From: a virus | Virus record (IMG/VR): IMGVR_UViG_3300030399_000053 | Length of the DNA stretch: 35,477 nt | Reading direction: 5' to 3' (one strand) | Notes under the pieces: model-generated | What the model was told of the DNA's origin: nothing | Seen by the model: only the letters and a program-made list of their open reading frames with translations | Database searches by the model: none | In this document: positions 2,678 to 35,477 of the stretch, in pieces | How positions within the stretch are numbered: the stretch's first letter is position 1 | How the letters are laid out: each line of letters opens with the position of its first letter | Made by a program: the position numbers and the translations under genes

Positions 2678-2841
2678 ATGGCAATAAAATAACTATGTTT
2701 ACAATTTATAAAAAACAAAGCCCCAATAAAATTAGAGATATAAATATTGCTATTGAGTATCATAATACTGGCCAAAGTCTACGTACGATAGGGGATAAAT
2801 ATGGTATGTCCAGTTCTAGAGTTTATCATAATACGTCGTAA
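2656..2841 (+). CDS. Second HTH (NUMOD1 / sigma-70 region 4-like) module. Probably a -1 frame extension of the HNH gene rather than an independent gene.
   Basis: It has only a TTG start and no RBS. GQSLRTIGDKYGMSSSRVY is HTH-like. The frame opens at 2638, immediately before the slippery A AAA AAT at 2641..2647 in the HNH frame. Confidence 0.4.
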   Translation: MEACQYLDGNKITMFTIYKKQSPNKIRDINIAIEYHNTGQSLRTIGDKYGMSSSRVYHNTS

Positions 2842-3047
2842 AACCTCGTGCTTTAGGTCGAGGATATAAGACGCGAGTAAAAAAGTTTGCAAAGTAAATA
2901 ATCTTTGCTATGCTGGTTCTTGTCGCCGATAACCAAGACGATCTACCGCCGGGCAGGCGGGATGTAATGCTTGTGGAGTGGAATGCATAAGCACCACTGT
3001 GAAGCAAGAACCGGAATCACCTTCCTTTAGGTCGGTGAGGATGTCAA
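2834..3047 (+). ncRNA. Copy 1 of a 214-nt duplicated structured element (candidate ncRNA, class unknown)
   Basis: 212/214 identical to 26703..26916. It contains multiple nested helices, including the long-range helix 2913-2922/3005-3014. There is no conserved credible ORF. The strand call rests on G-U wobbles. Confidence 0.55.
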
Positions 3048-3110
3048 CGATTTAAAATGCTAAACTTAGCGTAAACATTAACTTATTAACACCGTAAAGG
3101 AGTGATTCAA

Positions 3111-24256: not shown

Positions 24257-25099
24257 TTATCCTATTAATTGCGCTACAAAATCATCAACTTGTTCAGATG
24301 CTAATTTCTCAACGTGAGTAACGTTAAAGTTTTTCAAGACTTCATCACGTCTTTGATTACTTATATTATTCTCTATGAGAAATTCTTTTACTACTGTTAA
24401 TTCATCAATAGTCATTGCTGTGAGAACTGGCGTGTCGTCTTCTCTAGTTTCTGATAATGGCTCTTCTACAGCAGCCTTGTTTTTCTCTACTAAAGCCTTT
24501 AAATCTTCTTTAATACCATTATTTTTATCTTTCGGCGTGATATCTTTTAGATCGTAATCCTGGACTTCTTCAGCCATCCGTACGCCTCCTAATGCATCAG
24601 CAAAACTATCTCTTAAAGCAAAGCCGCGTGCGCGCATTTGCAACATCCGAGACGGATAAGAAGTCCACGGCCCTGCTTTACCCCATAGATTAGCAGTTAC
24701 CGCATCCTGAATAGTAAATAAATTAGACACTTCAGTTCTACCTCGTCGTTTTACTATACATTCATAGCCTATAGTTTTTTTATCTTGGTCTAAAATCTTA
24801 TGTTCTTTGATATCTTCAAAATCCGGATGACCAGAACATACAGCTAGCATTCCATCACCGTATAATGCCGGTTTACCATTAATAACGGCTATATTTTGTA
24901 CTGCAGCGAGCGGAGACAGGCGCAGACTTCTACCCATTTCCATGGCTATCAAAACATCCTGCGGCTTATTCGCGTAGGCTTTAGGAACCATCGCAGACTT
25001 AGAAATCATATTAGCCATTCTAAAAGCATGCTCAAAATTCTTCGGTGATAAAAATGAATTATCGTTATCGTGTGTAGTTATAGTTATTTCATTACTCAT
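24257..25099 (-). CDS. RecT / Red-beta family single-strand annealing protein
   Basis: AAAGGT RBS. GKAGPWTSYPSRMLQMRARGFALRDSF parallels lambda Bet GPWQSHPKRMLRHKAMIQCARLAF. The gene lies next to an exonuclease gene. Confidence 0.8.
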   Translation of the reverse strand: MSNEITITTHDNDNSFLSPKNFEHAFRMANMISKSAMVPKAYANKPQDVLIAMEMGRSLRLSPLAAVQNIAVINGKPALYGDGMLAVCSGHPDFEDIKEHKILDQDKKTIGYECIVKRRGRTEVSNLFTIQDAVTANLWGKAGPWTSYPSRMLQMRARGFALRDSFADALGGVRMAEEVQDYDLKDITPKDKNNGIKEDLKALVEKNKAAVEEPLSETREDDTPVLTAMTIDELTVVKEFLIENNISNQRRDEVLKNFNVTHVEKLASEQVDDFVAQLIG

Positions 25100-25100
25100 T

Positions 25101-25304
25101 TTATTTACCTTTATTTTTAGTTATTAATTTCATTAATTTATATGCAGATTTTATTTTTATACGTTTAGCCTTTCTTTCAGTCATATCCGCATCTTTAAGA
25201 ATATCTTTGATAATGCGCATTATAATATGTTTATAATCTTCTACTAAAGTATTGATAAGATTCTGTATTTGTTCTGCATTATAAGGTCTATCTAGATCAA
25301 TCAT
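25101..25304 (-). CDS. Hypothetical small protein
   Basis: GAGGA RBS. Tightly packed between the exonuclease and SSAP genes. Confidence 0.5.
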   Translation of the reverse strand: MIDLDRPYNAEQIQNLINTLVEDYKHIIMRIIKDILKDADMTERKAKRIKIKSAYKLMKLITKNKGK

Positions 25305-25306
25305 AA

Positions 25307-26194
25307 TTAATCCTCATTGTTAGCATAATTCGGTATAGTAAGTATTTGCGAATTATATCCCGGCCAATCCCCATTGTCAAGGCAGATTGCTAGCTTTTGC
25401 ATTGAATTATTAAATTGATTCATCCCGTGGTTGATAGCTTCATCATCAAGTATATAATAAACGCATGGATATCCTGGTGTCTTCTCAACACAATAAAATA
25501 CGAACTTTTCAAGCGTAATACCGACAGACGCTAAACCAGCCCTGATAATCGCTGCTTGCATAAAATAACCGCTGCTGTGTGCAGTTGCTTGGAATGCTCT
25601 GTAGCTTGCATCTTTAGCCGTTTTAAGATCGGTTACTACTGACCCTACCCAGGCATCAGGACGACACTTAACTTGTAAGCCAGTAGGCCCATGCGTGAAA
25701 TAAATACTATTCTCAGTTTTAACATTAGTAAATAAATCTTGCCCCATTTTATCATTCAGAACAGCTTTAGCAGTAGCTTTTGCCTCGGCATATATGTCAC
25801 TTGCTATAACCTCTTTGCCTATAGACATTCTATTAAATTTCTCTTTAAATGCCTGATTGATTGCAATTGTTTCTTCACGTGCTTTTTTTTGTCTTTCGTA
25901 TTTATCGCGCCCTACATCTCTGAGTAATTCTACTTTAGGTAAAGCTATATCGTTAGGTTCGACAATATACCTATCAGCAAAACTCGTAGGTTCAAGCACT
26001 AAAGCGTGTACTAATTCCCCAAGCTTCATACATTTAGTTGATTTTTGTTGAACTGCGTCAGGATTAAGGTATTTGTTCCAGTAATGCCAAGGGCTACGTT
26101 TAAACTCCCAAAGCGCGCTGCGTGATAAACCTTCGCTTGTGTGATATTCGGCATTAGATATAGCGTGAACACCATTGTTTAATTTCTGTTTCAT
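25307..26194 (-). CDS. PD-(D/E)XK exonuclease (RecE C-terminal / DUF3799-like)
   Basis: AAGGAGA sits 7 nt upstream of ATG 26194, whereas the 37-codon ORF-track extension covers the promoter region. Motifs: ISNAEYH..LSRSAL, GELVHALVLEP, DLKTAKDAS, YFMQAAI. Confidence 0.8.
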   Translation of the reverse strand: MKQKLNNGVHAISNAEYHTSEGLSRSALWEFKRSPWHYWNKYLNPDAVQQKSTKCMKLGELVHALVLEPTSFADRYIVEPNDIALPKVELLRDVGRDKYERQKKAREETIAINQAFKEKFNRMSIGKEVIASDIYAEAKATAKAVLNDKMGQDLFTNVKTENSIYFTHGPTGLQVKCRPDAWVGSVVTDLKTAKDASYRAFQATAHSSGYFMQAAIIRAGLASVGITLEKFVFYCVEKTPGYPCVYYILDDEAINHGMNQFNNSMQKLAICLDNGDWPGYNSQILTIPNYANNED

Positions 26195-26217
26195 TGTATT
26201 TTCTCCTTTGTTTAGTA

Positions 26218-26237
26218 TATAGCAATATGTTGCTATA
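26218..26237. promoter_or_regulatory. 20-bp palindrome TATAGCA-N6-TGCTATA in the divergent exo/recT versus cro-like control region
   Basis: Perfect 7-bp arms with a 6-bp spacer. The same architecture recurs at 31406..31425. Confidence 0.6.
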
Positions 26238-26274
26238 GCTATAATTGCATAAGTAAAACTATAATGCAATAGCT

Positions 26275-26283
26275 TGCTATAAT
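26275..26283 (+). promoter_or_regulatory. Extended -10 promoter element TGCTATAAT for the rightward early operon
   Basis: Perfect TGnTATAAT 55 nt upstream of ATG 26338. One of three perfect copies of this 9-mer in the genome. Confidence 0.6.
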
Positions 26284-26337
26284 TTAATTTCCTTGTTATA
26301 GTCATCCTGAAAATAAAACATTAATTAAGATATATAT

Positions 26338-26553
26338 ATGACTCCTGAAGAAGTAAAAGAATATTTTAGTACAACTTATAATTTCCAAAAAGTTACCAAA
26401 ATGTCAAATAACACGTTATGCAACTGGCTAAAGTGGGGATATGTGCCTTATCTATCTCAAAAGAAAATAGAAATCCTAACGAATAGCAAGTTAATCGCTG
26501 AATGGCATCCAAAAGAATTAGAAGTAAGAGAGAAGGGGTATAGTCATGATTGA
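26338..26553 (+). CDS. Cro / YdaS-like HTH regulator
   Basis: KVTKMSNNTLCNWLKWGYVPYLSQKKIEILTNSKL fits the YdaS/Cro pattern (HTH, then W..g.iP....ie.lT.G.l). First gene of the divergent early operon. Confidence 0.55.
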   Translation: MTPEEVKEYFSTTYNFQKVTKMSNNTLCNWLKWGYVPYLSQKKIEILTNSKLIAEWHPKELEVREKGYSHD

Positions 26554-26737
26554 TTTTAAAATTGGCGATGAGGCTTTTTTTTTACGTAACATAAGATTTG
26601 ACAGTGACACAGATATATCCGAAATAATTTTAAAATTTGAAGAAGTTGAATCATGCCATGATTTAGACTATCTGAATAAAAATCCAGGTGTTTATTATCC
26701 GCGTCGTAAGACCTCGTGCTTTAGGTCGAGGATATAA
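26546..26737 (+). CDS. FKxGD paralogue family member B. Its 3' end is supplied by the repeat element.
   Basis: GAAGGGG RBS. The N-terminus is MIDFKIGDEAFFL. The last 12 codons and the stop lie inside element copy 2. Confidence 0.5.
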   Translation: MIDFKIGDEAFFLRNIRFDSDTDISEIILKFEEVESCHDLDYLNKNPGVYYPRRKTSCFRSRI

Positions 26738-26916
26738 GACGCGAGTAAAAAAGTTTGCAAAGTAAATAATCTTTGCTATCCTGGTTCTTGTCGCCGATAA
26801 CCAAGACGATCTACCGCCGGGCAGGCGGGATGTAATGCTTGTGGAGTGGAATGCATAAGCACCACTGTGAAGCAAGAACCGGAATCACCTTCCTTTAGGT
26901 CGGTGAGGATGTCAAA
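26703..26916 (+). ncRNA. Copy 2 of the 214-nt duplicated structured element
   Basis: 212/214 identical to 2834..3047 and in the same orientation. It lies between two paralogous small genes. Confidence 0.55.
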
Positions 26917-26961
26917 TTAAATCAAAACAAGAATGCATAGATGCTTTCAAACGGAGATTAG

Positions 26962-32011: not shown

Positions 32012-32307
32012 ACATGCTTCCAGCTTGCAATCAACATACCTAATGCAAACAAAACCAACGGCATACATATAGCACCGATTGCTAAGTTATATAAATTATG
32101 TATTTTAGTATCTATTTTCATATCTAGATTTTGTATTTTAGTATCAATTTTTGTATCTAGATTCTGTATTCTTACATCTAATCTTTCGATAGCTGCTTCA
32201 ATACTAGAAAATTTACTATTTTGCTCTGATAAACGTAGCTCGTGATGTCTAAGTTTTACTTCATGTTGTATCCATGCCTCATCGTGGATCGGTTCTATTG
32301 TGCTCAT
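32008..32307 (-). CDS. Tail-anchored coiled-coil membrane protein with 11-residue tandem repeats
   Basis: GAGGT RBS. RIQNLDTKIDT / KIQNLDMKIDT / KIHNL repeats are followed by the C-terminal TM segment LAIGAICMPLVLFALGMLIASW. Confidence 0.6.
   Translation of the reverse strand: MSTIEPIHDEAWIQHEVKLRHHELRLSEQNSKFSSIEAAIERLDVRIQNLDTKIDTKIQNLDMKIDTKIHNLYNLAIGAICMPLVLFALGMLIASWKHV
32101..32166. repeat. 33-bp tandem repeat (2 copies, 29/33 identical, plus a partial third) inside ORF 32008..32307
   Basis: TATTTTAGTATCTATTTTCATATCTAGATTTTG / TATTTTAGTATCAATTTTTGTATCTAGATTCTG. Confidence 0.85.
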
Positions 32308-33856: not shown

Positions 33857-33929
33857 TTAGCTCTAGACAAACATAGGTCTCTCTCTTATAGTTATGGTGA
33901 AATTAATAACTATAAAAGGGATATTTACT

Positions 33930-34817
33930 ATGTCTACTAACATGAAAGGATGTTGTACAGGACCTGCGGGCCCGGTCGGTCCGCAAGGCGTCCAAGGATT
34001 GCAAGGTCCATCTGGCGCGGATGGTGCAGCAGGTGCTCAAGGGCCGGCTGGTCTAAATGGTGCTCCGGGTGTGAACGGAGTAGCTGGACCAGTCGGCCCG
34101 ATGGGTGCTGCTGGCGTCAACGGAGCTAATGGCCTTAATGGTGCTAATGGTGCTCAAGGCCCACAAGGTGACCAGGGCGCAGCTGGCGTTAATGGCGCAG
34201 CCGGGTTAAATGGTGCTCCTGGCTTAGCTGGCTTGCCAGGTGCTCAAGGCCCGATGGGATTACAAGGCCCTCAAGGGTTACAAGGTTTACAAGGCGTTCC
34301 TGGTGACTGTGTTAACTGTCCGTGCGAGGGCGCAGGCGTTGAATATGCAGAAGTTTACTCTAATGCTATTCAAAATCTAGCGGTTTCCCCTGGACTTAAT
34401 ATGCCCGGTGGTGTTGTAATATTAGAAAAAACTGTGGTGGCTACTGCTAATATAGACGTCTCCAAGGCAGCTACAACAGGTCAAATCACGGTAAACCGAA
34501 AGGGTTGGTATGATGTTGCGACCGGTATTTGCGGCGCCTTAAATCCTGTGCCTTCTCCGTTGCCATGCTGGACATTGTCGTTGTTTAAAAATGGCGTATT
34601 AGTTCCAGGATCAACATTTGCTAATCAGACTATTAGTCCCGAACAGGCATCTAATGAGATTGTTGCAGATGTTTATTTATATTGTGCAGCTGGTGACGTC
34701 TTAGCTTTAGCAAGTACGAGTACAAATCCGGTAATCTTATCATCTCCTACGCTAGGCACTAATGCTCAGCCGTCTTGTGGTTATTTAAAAATCAGTTCCC
34801 TTCAGCTTGACGTCTAG
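33930..34817 (+). CDS. Collagen-like protein: 38 uninterrupted G-X-Y triplets plus a globular C-terminal domain (BclA / C1q-like candidate)
   Basis: The G-X-Y run spans 33960..34301, followed by a CVNCPC knot and a ~165-aa beta-rich domain. ATG 33930 is preferred over 33894. The gene is clearly more GC-rich than its flanks and a terminator hairpin lies downstream. Confidence 0.85.
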
Positions 34818-35283: not shown

Positions 35284-35472
35284 ATGATAACTATCTTAAA
35301 TTCATGGGTTGAGAAAACCAAATCTAAAAAAAAAGCTGAAACTGCCCCAGCTTATGAAAAGTCGGTTTATCGCAATGACTTTGCACAGCAGACTAGAAAA
35401 CCTGATAAACGTAGCACGCCGTGTCTTAAAATGACAATGAACCGGTCAAACTCAAGTACTTTTAGGAAGTAA
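35284..35472 (+). CDS. Hypothetical basic protein spanning the circular junction
   Basis: AAGGA RBS. The 3' portion lies in the terminal repeat and recurs at 1..122. Confidence 0.5.
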   Translation: MITILNSWVEKTKSKKKAETAPAYEKSVYRNDFAQQTRKPDKRSTPCLKMTMNRSNSSTFRK

Positions 35473-35477
35473 TATGA
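35351..35477. repeat. Terminal direct repeat copy B (identical to 1..127)
   Basis: Base-for-base identity with 1..127. Confidence 0.97.

Follow-up and report, generated by a model that had tools for sequence, protein, structure and literature searches.

Two copies of a probable miniature IS200/IS605 transposon with an omega-RNA-like scaffold in a P22-like phage genome

Introduction

The genome of a P22-like phage contains two nearly identical copies of a 214-nt sequence, each of which is very likely a miniature, non-autonomous transposon of the IS200/IS605 family: a PATE of a tnpB-only (IS1341-type) lineage, in which a deletion has removed the coding part of tnpB. In order, each copy comprises a left end (LE), a promoter-like site, and a final stretch of ∼106 nt in which the tail of tnpB and the right end (RE) together form an omega-RNA-like scaffold. 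The repeat adds a further example, this time in a phage, to an established kind of mobile element, and does not represent a new class of phage RNA.

The original prediction described the repeat as a structured, apparently non-coding element, with candidate roles that included an antitermination or processing element, a trans-acting decoy, and the RNA component of a mobile cassette. The last of these was essentially correct. What had looked like a new structured phage RNA can be interpreted as an IS200/IS605 mini-element that lacks tnpB and whose guide-RNA scaffold looks intact.

Results

The repeat and its phage context

The window (the whole 35,477-nt stretch of viral DNA analysed, IMG/VR record IMGVR_UViG_3300030399_000053) was scanned with a repeat finder, which recovered a 214-nt direct repeat of 99% identity at 2834-3047 and 26702-26915, with a spacing of 23868. 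Pairwise alignment found 212 of 214 positions identical, as first reported, although copy 2 had been placed one base too high (at 26703-26916, with a spacing of 23869). The copies differ by two substitutions (A2842/G26710 and G2912/C26780), and their flanks are unrelated except for TTATC immediately upstream. The sole other repeat of at least 50 nt, in agreement with the earlier statement that no other large duplication exists, is a 127-nt terminal overlap (1-127 = 35351-35477), which indicates a circular assembly.

The phage is P22-like, with RecT and a PDDEXK nuclease; the portal proteins of cultured phages are no more than 26% identical to its own, too little for a host assignment. Each copy is situated at a gene end and is oriented like the neighbouring genes. 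On the + strand, the 3' end of a 48-aa helix-turn-helix ORF (2695-2841), a truncated form of a 146-aa gene in the related phage L069, runs into copy 1, and the last 12 codons of a 63-aa ORF (26546-26737) are, by translation, sequence of copy 2; in a reconstruction from which the element following TTATC is removed, the latter ORF would terminate in ...VYYH*. An HNH gene is located 150 nt upstream of copy 1.

Transposon ends and target motif

Both ends of the element carry a subterminal imperfect palindrome, in the same orientation and on one strand: CCTCG-TGCTTTAGGT-CGAGG (2844-2863) at the left and CACC-TTCCTTTAGGTC-GGTG (3018-3037) at the right. The stems of the end hairpins covary across loci (CACC/GGTG, CCCC/GGGG, CCTC/GAGG), and the flanks of both copies lack a target-site duplication. 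The CCUCG/CGAGG and 3' hairpins, originally proposed as RNA helices, are first of all the subterminal DNA palindromes of the transposon.

The RE of copy 1 (3014-3047, + strand) consists of GAAT (3014-3017), the hairpin with a remnant tnpB stop codon (TAG, 3028-3030) in its loop, and a terminal TCAA (3044-3047), 10 nt 3' of the hairpin foot. Identity between the two copies, and identity among dozens of relatives, both stop exactly at this TCAA: identical or near-identical REs were recovered at 31 viral, 57 genomic and one metagenomic loci, all of which terminate in ...GGATGTCAA at the boundary.

The LE of copy 1 (2834-2870, + strand) is made up of a linker (CGTCGT), the tetranucleotide AAAA (2840-2843), the hairpin CCTCG (2844-2848)/CGAGG (2859-2863), and then GGATATAAG; it aligns with the LEs of the tnpB-carrying elements L030, L019, L008 and L155 (GTAAAACCTCG..TTTAG..CGAGGATATAAG). 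In copy 2 (LE at 26702-26738, + strand), the tetranucleotide is AAGA (26708-26711) and the hairpin lies at 26712-26716/26727-26731.

The motif TTATC upstream of each copy (2823-2827 and 26695-26699, + strand; in copy 2, the overlapping TTAT at 26692-26695 could serve instead) is the candidate transposon-adjacent motif (TAM) and left cleavage site. In independent relatives, namely L030, L022, L029, L014, L155, and 15 copies in Calothrix, Microcoleus and Tolypothrix, the left end is immediately preceded by TTATC or TCATC, and the probability that a + strand TTATC would end 0-6 nt before both identity starts by chance is ∼2.5e-4. The GTTTAT(C/T)AT that had been treated as incidental is better read as the insertion target motif.

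Between the TAM and the onset of inter-copy identity lie left-end tips of 2-6 nt that differ between the copies, ATAATA in copy 1 (2828-2833, + strand) and CG in copy 2 (26700-26701, + strand), although the copies are otherwise 99% identical; the spacing from TAM to hairpin is 16 nt in copy 1 and 12 nt in copy 2. ATAATA probably belongs to the element, even though copy 2 does not share it; as at the copy-1 tip, relatives show an A/T-rich stretch and, after it, a G/C-rich linker. The difference in tip and spacing is not predicted by simple sibling transposition and counts against the transposon reading. A generally hypervariable left tip was considered as the cause and set aside, as near-identical Calothrix and Tolypothrix copies have common tips and only sub-families differ.

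The positions 5' of the hairpin feet that correspond to guide tetranucleotides are occupied by AAAA (AAGA in copy 2) at the left and GAAT at the right. By analogy only, AAAA versus TTAT resembles the IS608 pattern of AAAG versus TTAC; within a Nostoc family of 165-nt elements, TTAC occurs together with ..AAAG and TCAC with ..GAAG. The substitution A2842/G26710 would fall in this tetranucleotide, at the position of the IS608 guide G_L.

Relatives with and without tnpB

Relatives of the ends and 3' half of the element are IS200/IS605 elements in cyanobacteria, Proteobacteria and unrelated viral contigs. In L030, L006, L013, L019 and L008, LE-like and RE-like motifs are 1.16-1.25 kb apart, and in L030 they enclose a 352-aa ORF identified as TnpB (Pfam Cas12f1-like_TNB and OrfB_IS605; NCBIfam guided_TnpB, 253 bits). 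TnpB ORFs of 351-409 aa that end in the RE hairpin are present in these five and in L015, L005, L007 and L018; no tnpA was found next to the TnpB ORFs of the full-length relatives. The tnpB-bearing viral contigs are unrelated to the window phage.

A search of GTDB with a 23-mer from the RE returned 57 loci in bacterial genomes, mostly multi-copy mini-elements of 165-385 nt, all ending in ...TCAA, with the TAMs TTAC/TCAC or TCATC/TTATC at the left junctions of the mini-elements; none is similar to the window element past the ∼36-nt right end. A 33-mer from the RE matched a single contig in the JGI metagenomes, L155, which contains a decayed tnpB and has the TAM TTATC. L155 is the closest relative; its similarity to the window element is limited to the ends and ∼100 nt in the scaffold region. 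Forms reduced to a solo hairpin of 36 nt occur in L017, L022, L029 and L134.

These two RE searches yielded neither a close full-length parent nor a host, and an exact 28-mer from the interior of the element was absent from IMG/VR. A full-length parent would be expected to show ...GGAATCACCTTCCTTTAGGTCGGTGAGGATGTCAA adjoining an intact tnpB. The element (blastn) and 20 kb of the window (megablast) had no match in 50,697 GenBank phages, and the RE has relatives at viral, genomic and metagenomic loci.

An omega-RNA-like scaffold

Positions 2942-3047 align to the 3' ends of tnpB in L005, L007, L018 and L155, and the alignment extends over the remnant stop codon within the RE loop. Judged by its sequence, the 3' 106 nt of the element is a tnpB tail that would double as an omega-RNA scaffold, a designation that also draws on a covariance model and on covariation. 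The predicted scaffold of copy 1 (2942-3047, + strand) contains helix A (2946-2950/2956-2960), helix B (2970-2974/3004-3008), helix C (2977-2981/2994-2998) and the right-end hairpin (3018-3021/3034-3037). The covariance model R1, which was built from 13 other loci with the window left out, matches the window only at the two copies (that of copy 2 at 26810-26915) and only on the + strand, over the full model, at 67.2 bits (E 2.3e-16), which is ∼25-35 bits above loci that retain only the right end. The strand-specific match agrees with the earlier assignment of function to the + strand.

The helices covary across the family: 88.6% of cells pair, compared with 33-46% when the partners are slid, and double changes occur in 34 of 41 pairs. 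The alignment is model-fitted and so leans towards structure; for helices A and B, the pairing was in addition recognised in the raw sequences, independently of the model. Three of the helices originally drawn by eye (CCGCC/GGCGG, AGUGG/CCACU and UCACC/GGUGA) are conserved with covariation, whereas the long-range helix (2913-2922/3005-3014) is unsupported: it needs the CAAG that pairs with 2970-2973 in the conserved fold, and has no counterpart in L155. The window scaffold lacks a penultimate hairpin present in most relatives, as does L005, which encodes an intact 381-aa TnpB; those family-conserved helices that are retained are all intact in the copies.

Rfam returned nothing at gathering thresholds in the whole window or in nine relatives. 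The only sub-threshold signal in a permissive scan was to HgcC (RF00062), at 17.7 bits in the window and 21.8 bits in L018, against a gathering score of 50.

Upstream of the scaffold, a promoter-like site in copy 1 (2887-2914, + strand) consists of TTGCAA, a 16-nt spacer and TGnTATGCT, with the putative -10 at 2909-2914; its counterpart in copy 2 (26755-26782, + strand) has TATCCT as the -10. The copy-1 site matches at only 8 of 12 positions and fell below the threshold of the consensus scan, which did not list it. The same position upstream of tnpB is occupied by TTGACT-16-TAATAT in L155 and by TGCTATAAT in L030, and the site is apparently the former tnpB promoter. The substitution G2912/C26780 would fall in its -10-like hexamer, so that the two inter-copy differences, formerly assigned to unpaired linkers, are more plausibly located in a guide-like tetranucleotide and a -10-like hexamer.

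In TnpB systems, the guide of the omega RNA lies immediately outside the RE (PMC10055086). By this rule, the predicted guide segments are the flanking phage sequences CGATTTAAAATGCTAAACTT (3048-3067, + strand) for copy 1 and ATTAAATCAAAACAAGAATG (26916-26935, + strand) for copy 2. A second match to the former was not found in the window, and the latter likewise has no other close match there.

Dependence on host proteins, and the search for empty sites

No tnpB was found in the window (tblastn), nor was Y1_Tnp among the 30 window ORFs scanned against Pfam. As the phage lacks both tnpA and tnpB, the proteins needed for mobility, and for any RNA-guided activity, must come from the host; the 99% identity of the copies implies recent movement.

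Neither an empty-site allele nor an excision product was found in 60 portal-linked relatives, among upstream ORFs, by protein look-ups or by a flank-mer search of IMG/VR, and precise insertion is for that reason a matter of inference. The 60 relatives are too divergent for an empty-site comparison, and their TerL-p86 interval is hypervariable. Flank 24/25-mers were absent from IMG/VR, the upstream ORFs are singletons with no other allele in the protein collection, and exact-protein look-ups returned the same phage or nothing; the gene for the PDDEXK nuclease beside copy 2, used as a query, retrieved two loci only, at ∼55% identity. Excision by TnpA would leave the donor joints ...GAGTTTATC|CGATTTAAAATGC... 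and ...GTTTATTATC|ATTAAATCAAAAC... (or TTAT-offset variants), and an excised circle would carry the junction ...GGATGTCAA|ATAATACGTCG... or ...GGATGTCAA|CGCGTCG....

Alternative explanations

The alternative that survives best accepts the same IS200/IS605 mini-element and holds that both copies are now inert, dead insertions lying harmlessly between genes with neither RNA function nor mobility. We regard this as possible, though doubtful. It accords with the lack of tnpA and tnpB in the phage, the missing scaffold hairpin, the below-threshold promoter, the decayed tnpB of the closest relative (L155), and the state of copy 2, in which the -10 hexamer is weakened and the left tip reduced to a 12-nt spacing. 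However, the identity between the copies implies that they moved recently, the retained conserved helices are intact and outscore right-end-only loci by the margin given above, and the intact-TnpB element L005 has undergone the identical hairpin loss.

Far less probable is a structured RNA that belongs to the phage and is needed at two transcription units, such as a put-like antiterminator, a processing element or a decoy. The location of both copies at gene ends, oriented with transcription, and a + strand fold z-score of -2.7 would fit such an RNA; yet the minus strand, at -3.4, folds equally well, so the fold statistic says nothing about strand, and the both-strand folding comparison that had been suggested could be made without discriminating between strands. 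The element was not found in the 60 related phages, for which the terminase–portal region (∼5 kb on either side of the portal, corresponding to the copy-1 site only) was fetched, and no Rfam family matches it. The end hairpins, TAM and TCAA are features of transposons, and the ends and scaffold are common to IS200/IS605 elements of cyanobacteria and Proteobacteria; the antiterminator and decoy roles first suggested are not supported in view of this homology and the absence from the relatives' terminase–portal region.

The possibility that the repeat is an assembly artefact (collapsed, duplicated or mis-joined), a concern raised at the outset, is exceedingly slight. A short ENA contig (L033) links the copy-1 5' flank, through the repeat, to the copy-2 3' flank, and contigs from other samples end within the element; the L033 junction is either a graph chimera or a product of recombination between the copies. 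Against an artefact, two substitutions and unlike left tips distinguish the copies, the flanks of copy 1 show synteny with related phages (TerL ... p86-portal), and an independently assembled Logan contig of 11.3 kb (SRR8554086_437880, 11337 nt) begins within copy 2 and ends within copy 1, with exactly the flanks of the window.

Open frames of 63/70 codons do exist on the minus strand, but a protein gene there can be dismissed almost entirely, as a search of 5.8 billion proteins yielded no homologue of its product (in keeping with the non-coding character first ascribed to the element) and both substitutions are, as already pointed out in the original prediction, non-synonymous in it, and the same holds for another RNA class (group I intron, tRNA-like or retron RNA), given that ARAGORN reported no tRNA or tmRNA and that no Rfam family reached its gathering score. 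A group I intron was specifically rejected: it gave no Rfam signal, and the element does not lie within a continuous ORF.

Discussion

If the repeat is, as we consider very probable, a tnpB-less IS200/IS605 miniature, a Y1 transposase (TnpA) of the host would have moved it as single-stranded DNA to two phage sites, 3' of TTATC in each. Transcription from the putative internal promoter, or read-through from the phage, would then produce the scaffold joined to a guide of ∼16-20 nt copied from the phage flank. With this scaffold RNA bound, a compatible TnpB of the host would cut 'empty' sites consisting of TTATC plus the guide sequence, whether excised sites or element-free co-infecting genomes, and recombination would restore or spread the element.

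A more speculative extension, which we think improbable, is that the two 'orphan' guide-RNA cassettes borrow a host TnpB to drive RNA-guided homing, or marker exclusion, among phages, with no need for a phage-encoded nuclease. Here the RecT/nuclease recombination of the phage would copy the element into cut co-infecting genomes, in a manner that can be likened to that of homing endonucleases, such as the product of the HNH gene upstream of copy 1.

The family defines an omega-RNA/right-end lineage that lies outside every Rfam model, is found in cyanobacteria, Proteobacteria and viral contigs, and very often takes the form of gene-less miniatures. The miniature described here resides, without its own transposase or nuclease, in a lytic-type P22-like phage, and the lack of a phage transposase points to mobilisation during infection. 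The element provides a molecular clue to the host of the phage, which must carry the cognate TnpA. With a TAM (TTATC) and two guide sequences predicted, it also offers a test case for trans-acting omega RNAs; if functional, it would bring RNA-guided transposon homing into the competition between phages.

Comparison with known systems

The closest parallel is with PATEs, minimal non-autonomous IS200/IS605 elements such as the PATE-like ISGst elements of Geobacillus stearothermophilus, among which PATEs encoding omega RNAs used in trans have been described (Meers et al. 2023, PMC10055086). Like these, the window element has no protein-coding gene, ends conserved with those of tnpB-bearing relatives, and a scaffold that would need TnpB and TnpA in trans. 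It differs from the ISGst PATEs in belonging to another lineage, with another sequence and TAM (TTATC; right end ...GGATGTCAA), and in its location in a P22-like phage without tnpA or tnpB.

IS608 of Helicobacter pylori (He et al. 2011, PMC3201880) has TCAA as its right cleavage site, at 10 nt from the hairpin. It shares with the window element same-strand subterminal hairpins, the position of TCAA 10 nt 3' of the right foot, a left target tetranucleotide about 16-19 nt upstream of the foot of the left hairpin, and the absence of a target duplication. In contrast to the window element, IS608 has both tnpA and tnpB, targets TTAC rather than TTAT(C), and has a spacing of 19 nt (16 in copy 1 and 12 in copy 2); sequence homology between the two is confined to short motifs. 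RNAs have also been described from the 3' end of IS1341-type tnpB genes (sotRNAs) and from a PATE (VNG_R0052 of Halobacterium salinarum), along with the HgcC motif, RF00062 (Gomes-Filho et al. 2015, PMC4615843). These RNAs resemble ours in lying at a tnpB 3' end or in a fused LE-RE element and in having an RE-like hairpin motif, but they are archaeal, and the likeness is confined to the right-end hairpin.

The TnpB omega RNA, or reRNA, of ISDra2 and related elements was reportedly characterized by Karvelis et al. and Altae-Tran et al. in 2021. In omega RNAs of the ISDra2 type, the scaffold extends over the 3' end of tnpB into the right end, with the transposon boundary as its limit; the adjacent flank serves as the guide, and the TAM is the motif used by TnpA. 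The putative window scaffold has the same placement and the same stop at the boundary, and its guide and TAM would follow the same rule, but it has no detectable sequence similarity, no TnpB alongside, and a short length (106 nt matched by the model).

Two further systems resemble the repeat in outline. The put RNAs of HK022 are structured RNAs present in two copies per phage genome and acting in the direction of transcription; they have no homology to the window element, and are not known to have transposon ends, a target motif or bacterial transposon relatives. REP/REPIN sequences are short, hairpin-based, non-autonomous elements, mobilised by RAYT (Y1-type) proteins and related to IS200/IS605 ends; REPINs are inverted pairs of REPs and are not known to carry a tnpB tail or omega-RNA scaffold, whereas the hairpins of the window family are direct and, in full-length relatives, enclose tnpB. 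The solo-hairpin forms (L017, L022, L029 and L134) are the members of the family that look REP-like.

Results

A repeat finder detected one long internal repeat in the window, consisting of two direct, 99% identical copies (2834-3047 and 26702-26915), in a circularly assembled phage genome of 35.35 kb (terminal overlap 127 nt) whose genes include those for a large terminase and for portal and coat proteins of P22 type; no tRNAs were found in the window, and no similarity to GenBank phages. Pairwise alignment gives identity at 212/214 positions, with substitutions A2842/G26710 and G2912/C26780, so that the 214-nt repeat of the original prediction and the rest of that observation stand, save for copy-2 coordinates that were one base too high. 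The 99% identity of the copies shows that the duplication is recent. The same phage and the same element are present in independent assemblies: an 11,337-nt Logan contig (SRR8554086) starts within copy 2 and ends within copy 1, with the flanks of the window. A 692-nt contig (L033; ENA ERZ27249803, k141_606478) runs from the copy-1 5' flank through one element copy, bearing the copy-1 variants, into the copy-2 3' flank; a chimera of the de Bruijn graph or recombination between the copies accounts for this junction, and in the latter case 23.9 kb would be deleted or circularised.

At each end of the element stands a hairpin of the same type, the two in direct orientation and read on the + strand as ...GTAAAA-CCTCG-TGCTTTAGGT-CGAGG-ATATAAG... 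(left end, 2838-2870) and ...GGAAT-CACC-TTCCTTTAGGTC-GGTG-AGGATGTCAA (right end, 3013-3047). A degenerate pattern of this motif matched 31 viral contigs, and in five of these (L030, L006, L013, L019, L008) a left-end-like and a right-end-like copy point the same way and are separated by 1.16-1.25 kb. The ends in L030 enclose a 352-aa ORF, its stop codon within the right-hairpin loop, that encodes a TnpB (Pfam Cas12f1-like_TNB and OrfB_IS605; NCBIfam 'RNA-guided endonuclease TnpB', 253 bits), and further contigs carry TnpB genes of 351-409 aa terminating in the same right end, beside which no tnpA was found. Since ends of this type enclose TnpB genes, the window element derives from a tnpB-only (IS1341-type) IS200/IS605 element and has lost the gene. 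The 5' hairpin predicted earlier is the left-end palindrome of the transposon. In the phage, tblastn detects no tnpB, and none of the 30 ORFs scanned encodes a Y1 transposase.

In alignments, the 3' half of the element corresponds to the 3' ends of tnpB genes, the part of TnpB elements in which the guide RNA is encoded (omega RNA, reRNA or sotRNA; PMC10055086; PMC4615843). One frame of this half reads ...TAGQAGCNACGVECISTTVKQEP..., a typical TnpB tail, comparable in sequence to ...MAGHAIIACGENALAISMKQEP... in the metagenome contig L155 and ...TAGLAGLVCGANIRP in L098. Raw sequence comparison, independent of any model, revealed compensatory changes in two helices: helix A (2946-2950/2956-2960), which is CCGCC/GGCGG in the window and CCGCA/TGCGG, CGGCA/TGCCG, TGGCA/TGCCA, CCGTG/CACGG or CCGCT/AGCGG elsewhere, and helix B (2970-2974/3004-3008), CTTG/CAAG in the window and CCTG/CAGG, TCTG/CAGA or CCTC/GAGG elsewhere. 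A covariance model built from 13 tnpB-3'-end/right-end regions, the window excluded, and searched with filters off gave two significant matches in the window and no more, both on the + strand and over the full model (2942-3047 and 26810-26915; 67.2 bits, E 2.3e-16), with the inner and penultimate hairpins deleted in both copies; the score is 30-45 bits at loci where nothing but the right end is retained. In a 59-member alignment, which is model-fitted and hence biased towards structure, 88.6% of cells pair, vs 33-46% with partners slid, and 34/41 pairs show double changes.

Three of the helices originally proposed are helix A, helix C (2977-2981/2994-2998) and the right-end hairpin (3018-3021/3034-3037) of this conserved fold. 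Two others fared less well: L155 has no equivalent of the long-range helix 2913-2922/3005-3014, which competes with conserved helix B, and the GCAAAG/CUUUGC helix lacks comparative support and overlaps a promoter-like site (TTGCAA-16 nt-TGnTATGCT, 2887-2914, + strand) between left end and scaffold. This site is positioned as are TTGACT-16-TAATAT (L155) and TGCTATAAT (L030) upstream of tnpB; it matches the consensus at only 8/12 positions and is absent from consensus-scan output. The first inter-copy substitution alters the tetranucleotide that precedes the left hairpin (AAAA vs AAGA), the second the -10 hexamer of the promoter-like site (TATGCT vs TATCCT). On the minus strand, 2889-2908 in the left part of the element forms a terminator-like hairpin, GCAAAG-N8-CTTTGC, followed by AAACTTTTTT; antisense transcripts entering the element might end there. 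Folding statistics did not discriminate between the strands.

The right-end 23-mer occurs at 57 loci of representative bacterial genomes, mainly of Nostoc, Calothrix, Microcoleus and Tolypothrix with some Gamma- and Betaproteobacteria, most of them multi-copy miniatures of ~165, 275 or 380 nt whose similarity ends exactly at ...GGATGTCAA. The closest relative of the element is L155, of AT-rich, bacterial context, which shares the right-end 33-mer and the transposon-adjacent motif (TAM) TTATC and carries a decayed tnpB. Solo hairpins of ~36 nt (L017:4701-4740, L022:10345-10383, L029:1677-1715, L014:2489-2528, L134:2990-3027) fuse the 5' part of a left end (GTAAAACC..) to the 3' part of a right end (..GGAGGATGTCAA), are preceded by TTATC or TTTAC where this is visible, and are minimal palindrome-associated transposable elements or fused left-right-end remnants, REP-like in look.

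Left junctions give the target TTAC/TCAC for the Nostoc miniatures and TCATC/TTATC for those of Calothrix, Microcoleus and Tolypothrix; five contigs with a left end resembling that of the window (L030, L022, L029, L014, L155) each have it 3' of TTATC. The TAM TTATC lies at 2823-2827 (copy 1) and 26695-26699 (copy 2) on the + strand, with a chance probability of ~2.5e-4 for both sites. The short GTTTAT(C/T)AT noted earlier is indeed present 5' of both copies and, because TTATC precedes the relatives as well, is the TAM. No target duplication was seen in the flanks of either copy. With copy 2 removed after TTATC, the last codons of the upstream ORF would read ...VYYH-TAA and 44 nt would separate it from the next gene, a reconstruction that fits a clean insertion where a gene ends.

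The left end of the element is expected to begin immediately 3' of the TAM. The two copies differ in the bases that separate the TAM from the first shared position (ATAATA, 2828-2833, in copy 1 vs CG, 26700-26701, in copy 2), and the TAM lies 16 nt (copy 1), 12 nt (copy 2) or 15 nt (relatives) from the hairpin foot. Such differing tips are unusual, because near-identical copies in other families have common left tips; the copies may stem from two different donors, one may have suffered a small secondary deletion, or the overlapping TTAT at 26692-26695 may have been used. In a 165-nt gene-less Nostoc family with the same right end (L101, L145, L133, L121, L108, L138, L115, L154, L151, L136, L110, L146, L148), the target motif covaries with the base 4 nt 5' of the left-end CCCCG, which is preceded by ..AAAG in TTAC-flanked copies and by ..GAAG or ..GAAA in 4/4 TCAC-flanked copies, as would be expected if an internal guide base-pairs with the target, as in IS608.

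Copy 1 lies within the hypervariable TerL-p86 interval, whose length ranges from ~25 to ~2,000 nt among relatives and which is therefore a mobile-DNA hot spot. The copy adjoins a truncated HTH gene and an HNH_3 homing-endonuclease-like gene (2075-2677, + strand, 200 aa), the latter between the large terminase and the HTH gene and 150 nt upstream of copy 1; the related phage L069 lacks the HNH gene at that place and has a 146-aa HTH gene directly after TerL. The element was found in 0/60 related phage loci (portal 23-86% identical, ~5 kb each side of the portal gene), regions that cover the copy-1 site only. A RecT-family annealase and a PDDEXK (DUF3799) nuclease are encoded at 24257-26305 (- strand), ~400 nt upstream of copy 2. 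Elsewhere, two tandem 33-nt AT-rich repeats (32088-32153, 82% identical), intergenic and near a divergent gene pair, may be iterons, an origin or an operator region, and 33894-34817 (+ strand) encodes a 307-aa protein that contains collagen triple-helix repeats and weakly matches the BclA C-terminal domain, a fibre-like protein unusual for a small podovirus-type genome.

Discussion

Transposon ends, target motif, gene-less architecture, conserved guide-RNA scaffold and trans-factor dependence are all documented here. By analogy with the IS200/IS605 and TnpB pathways (PMC3201880; PMC10055086), host TnpA would have inserted single-stranded copies 3' of TTATC, and transcripts of scaffold plus flank could load host TnpB; the loaded nuclease would then cut empty sites composed of TTATC plus guide, favouring retention or spread of the element via recombination. 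The phage's own recombination system (RecT, PDDEXK) bears on any such homing-type spread.

As predicted, no Rfam family reached its gathering score. The sole permissive match in the window was HgcC (RF00062), an archaeal RNA of unknown function, over the 3' hairpin (17.7 bits vs a threshold of 50); it was the top sub-threshold match both on the mini-element (2944-3060, 17.7 bits) and on an intact-TnpB relative (L018:5267-5470, 21.8 bits, E 0.004). These matches agree with the IS1341 right-end-like motif published for HgcC (PMC4615843). The RNA is structured, as first proposed, and is not of an unknown kind: tnpB-bearing relatives and the model match identify it as the omega-RNA/right-end module of a miniature IS200/IS605 transposon. 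The element thus belongs to a known kind of transposon, and Rfam has no model for its bacterial omega-RNA lineage; its value lies mainly in the phage setting and in a testable trans-guide hypothesis.

The geometry of the element matches that of the reference element IS608, whose left hairpin lies 19 nt downstream of the tetranucleotide after which cleavage takes place, and whose right hairpin is followed at a distance of 10 nt by the cleavage site TCAA (PMC3201880); in the window, TCAA (3044-3047) likewise sits 10 nt from the foot of the right hairpin.
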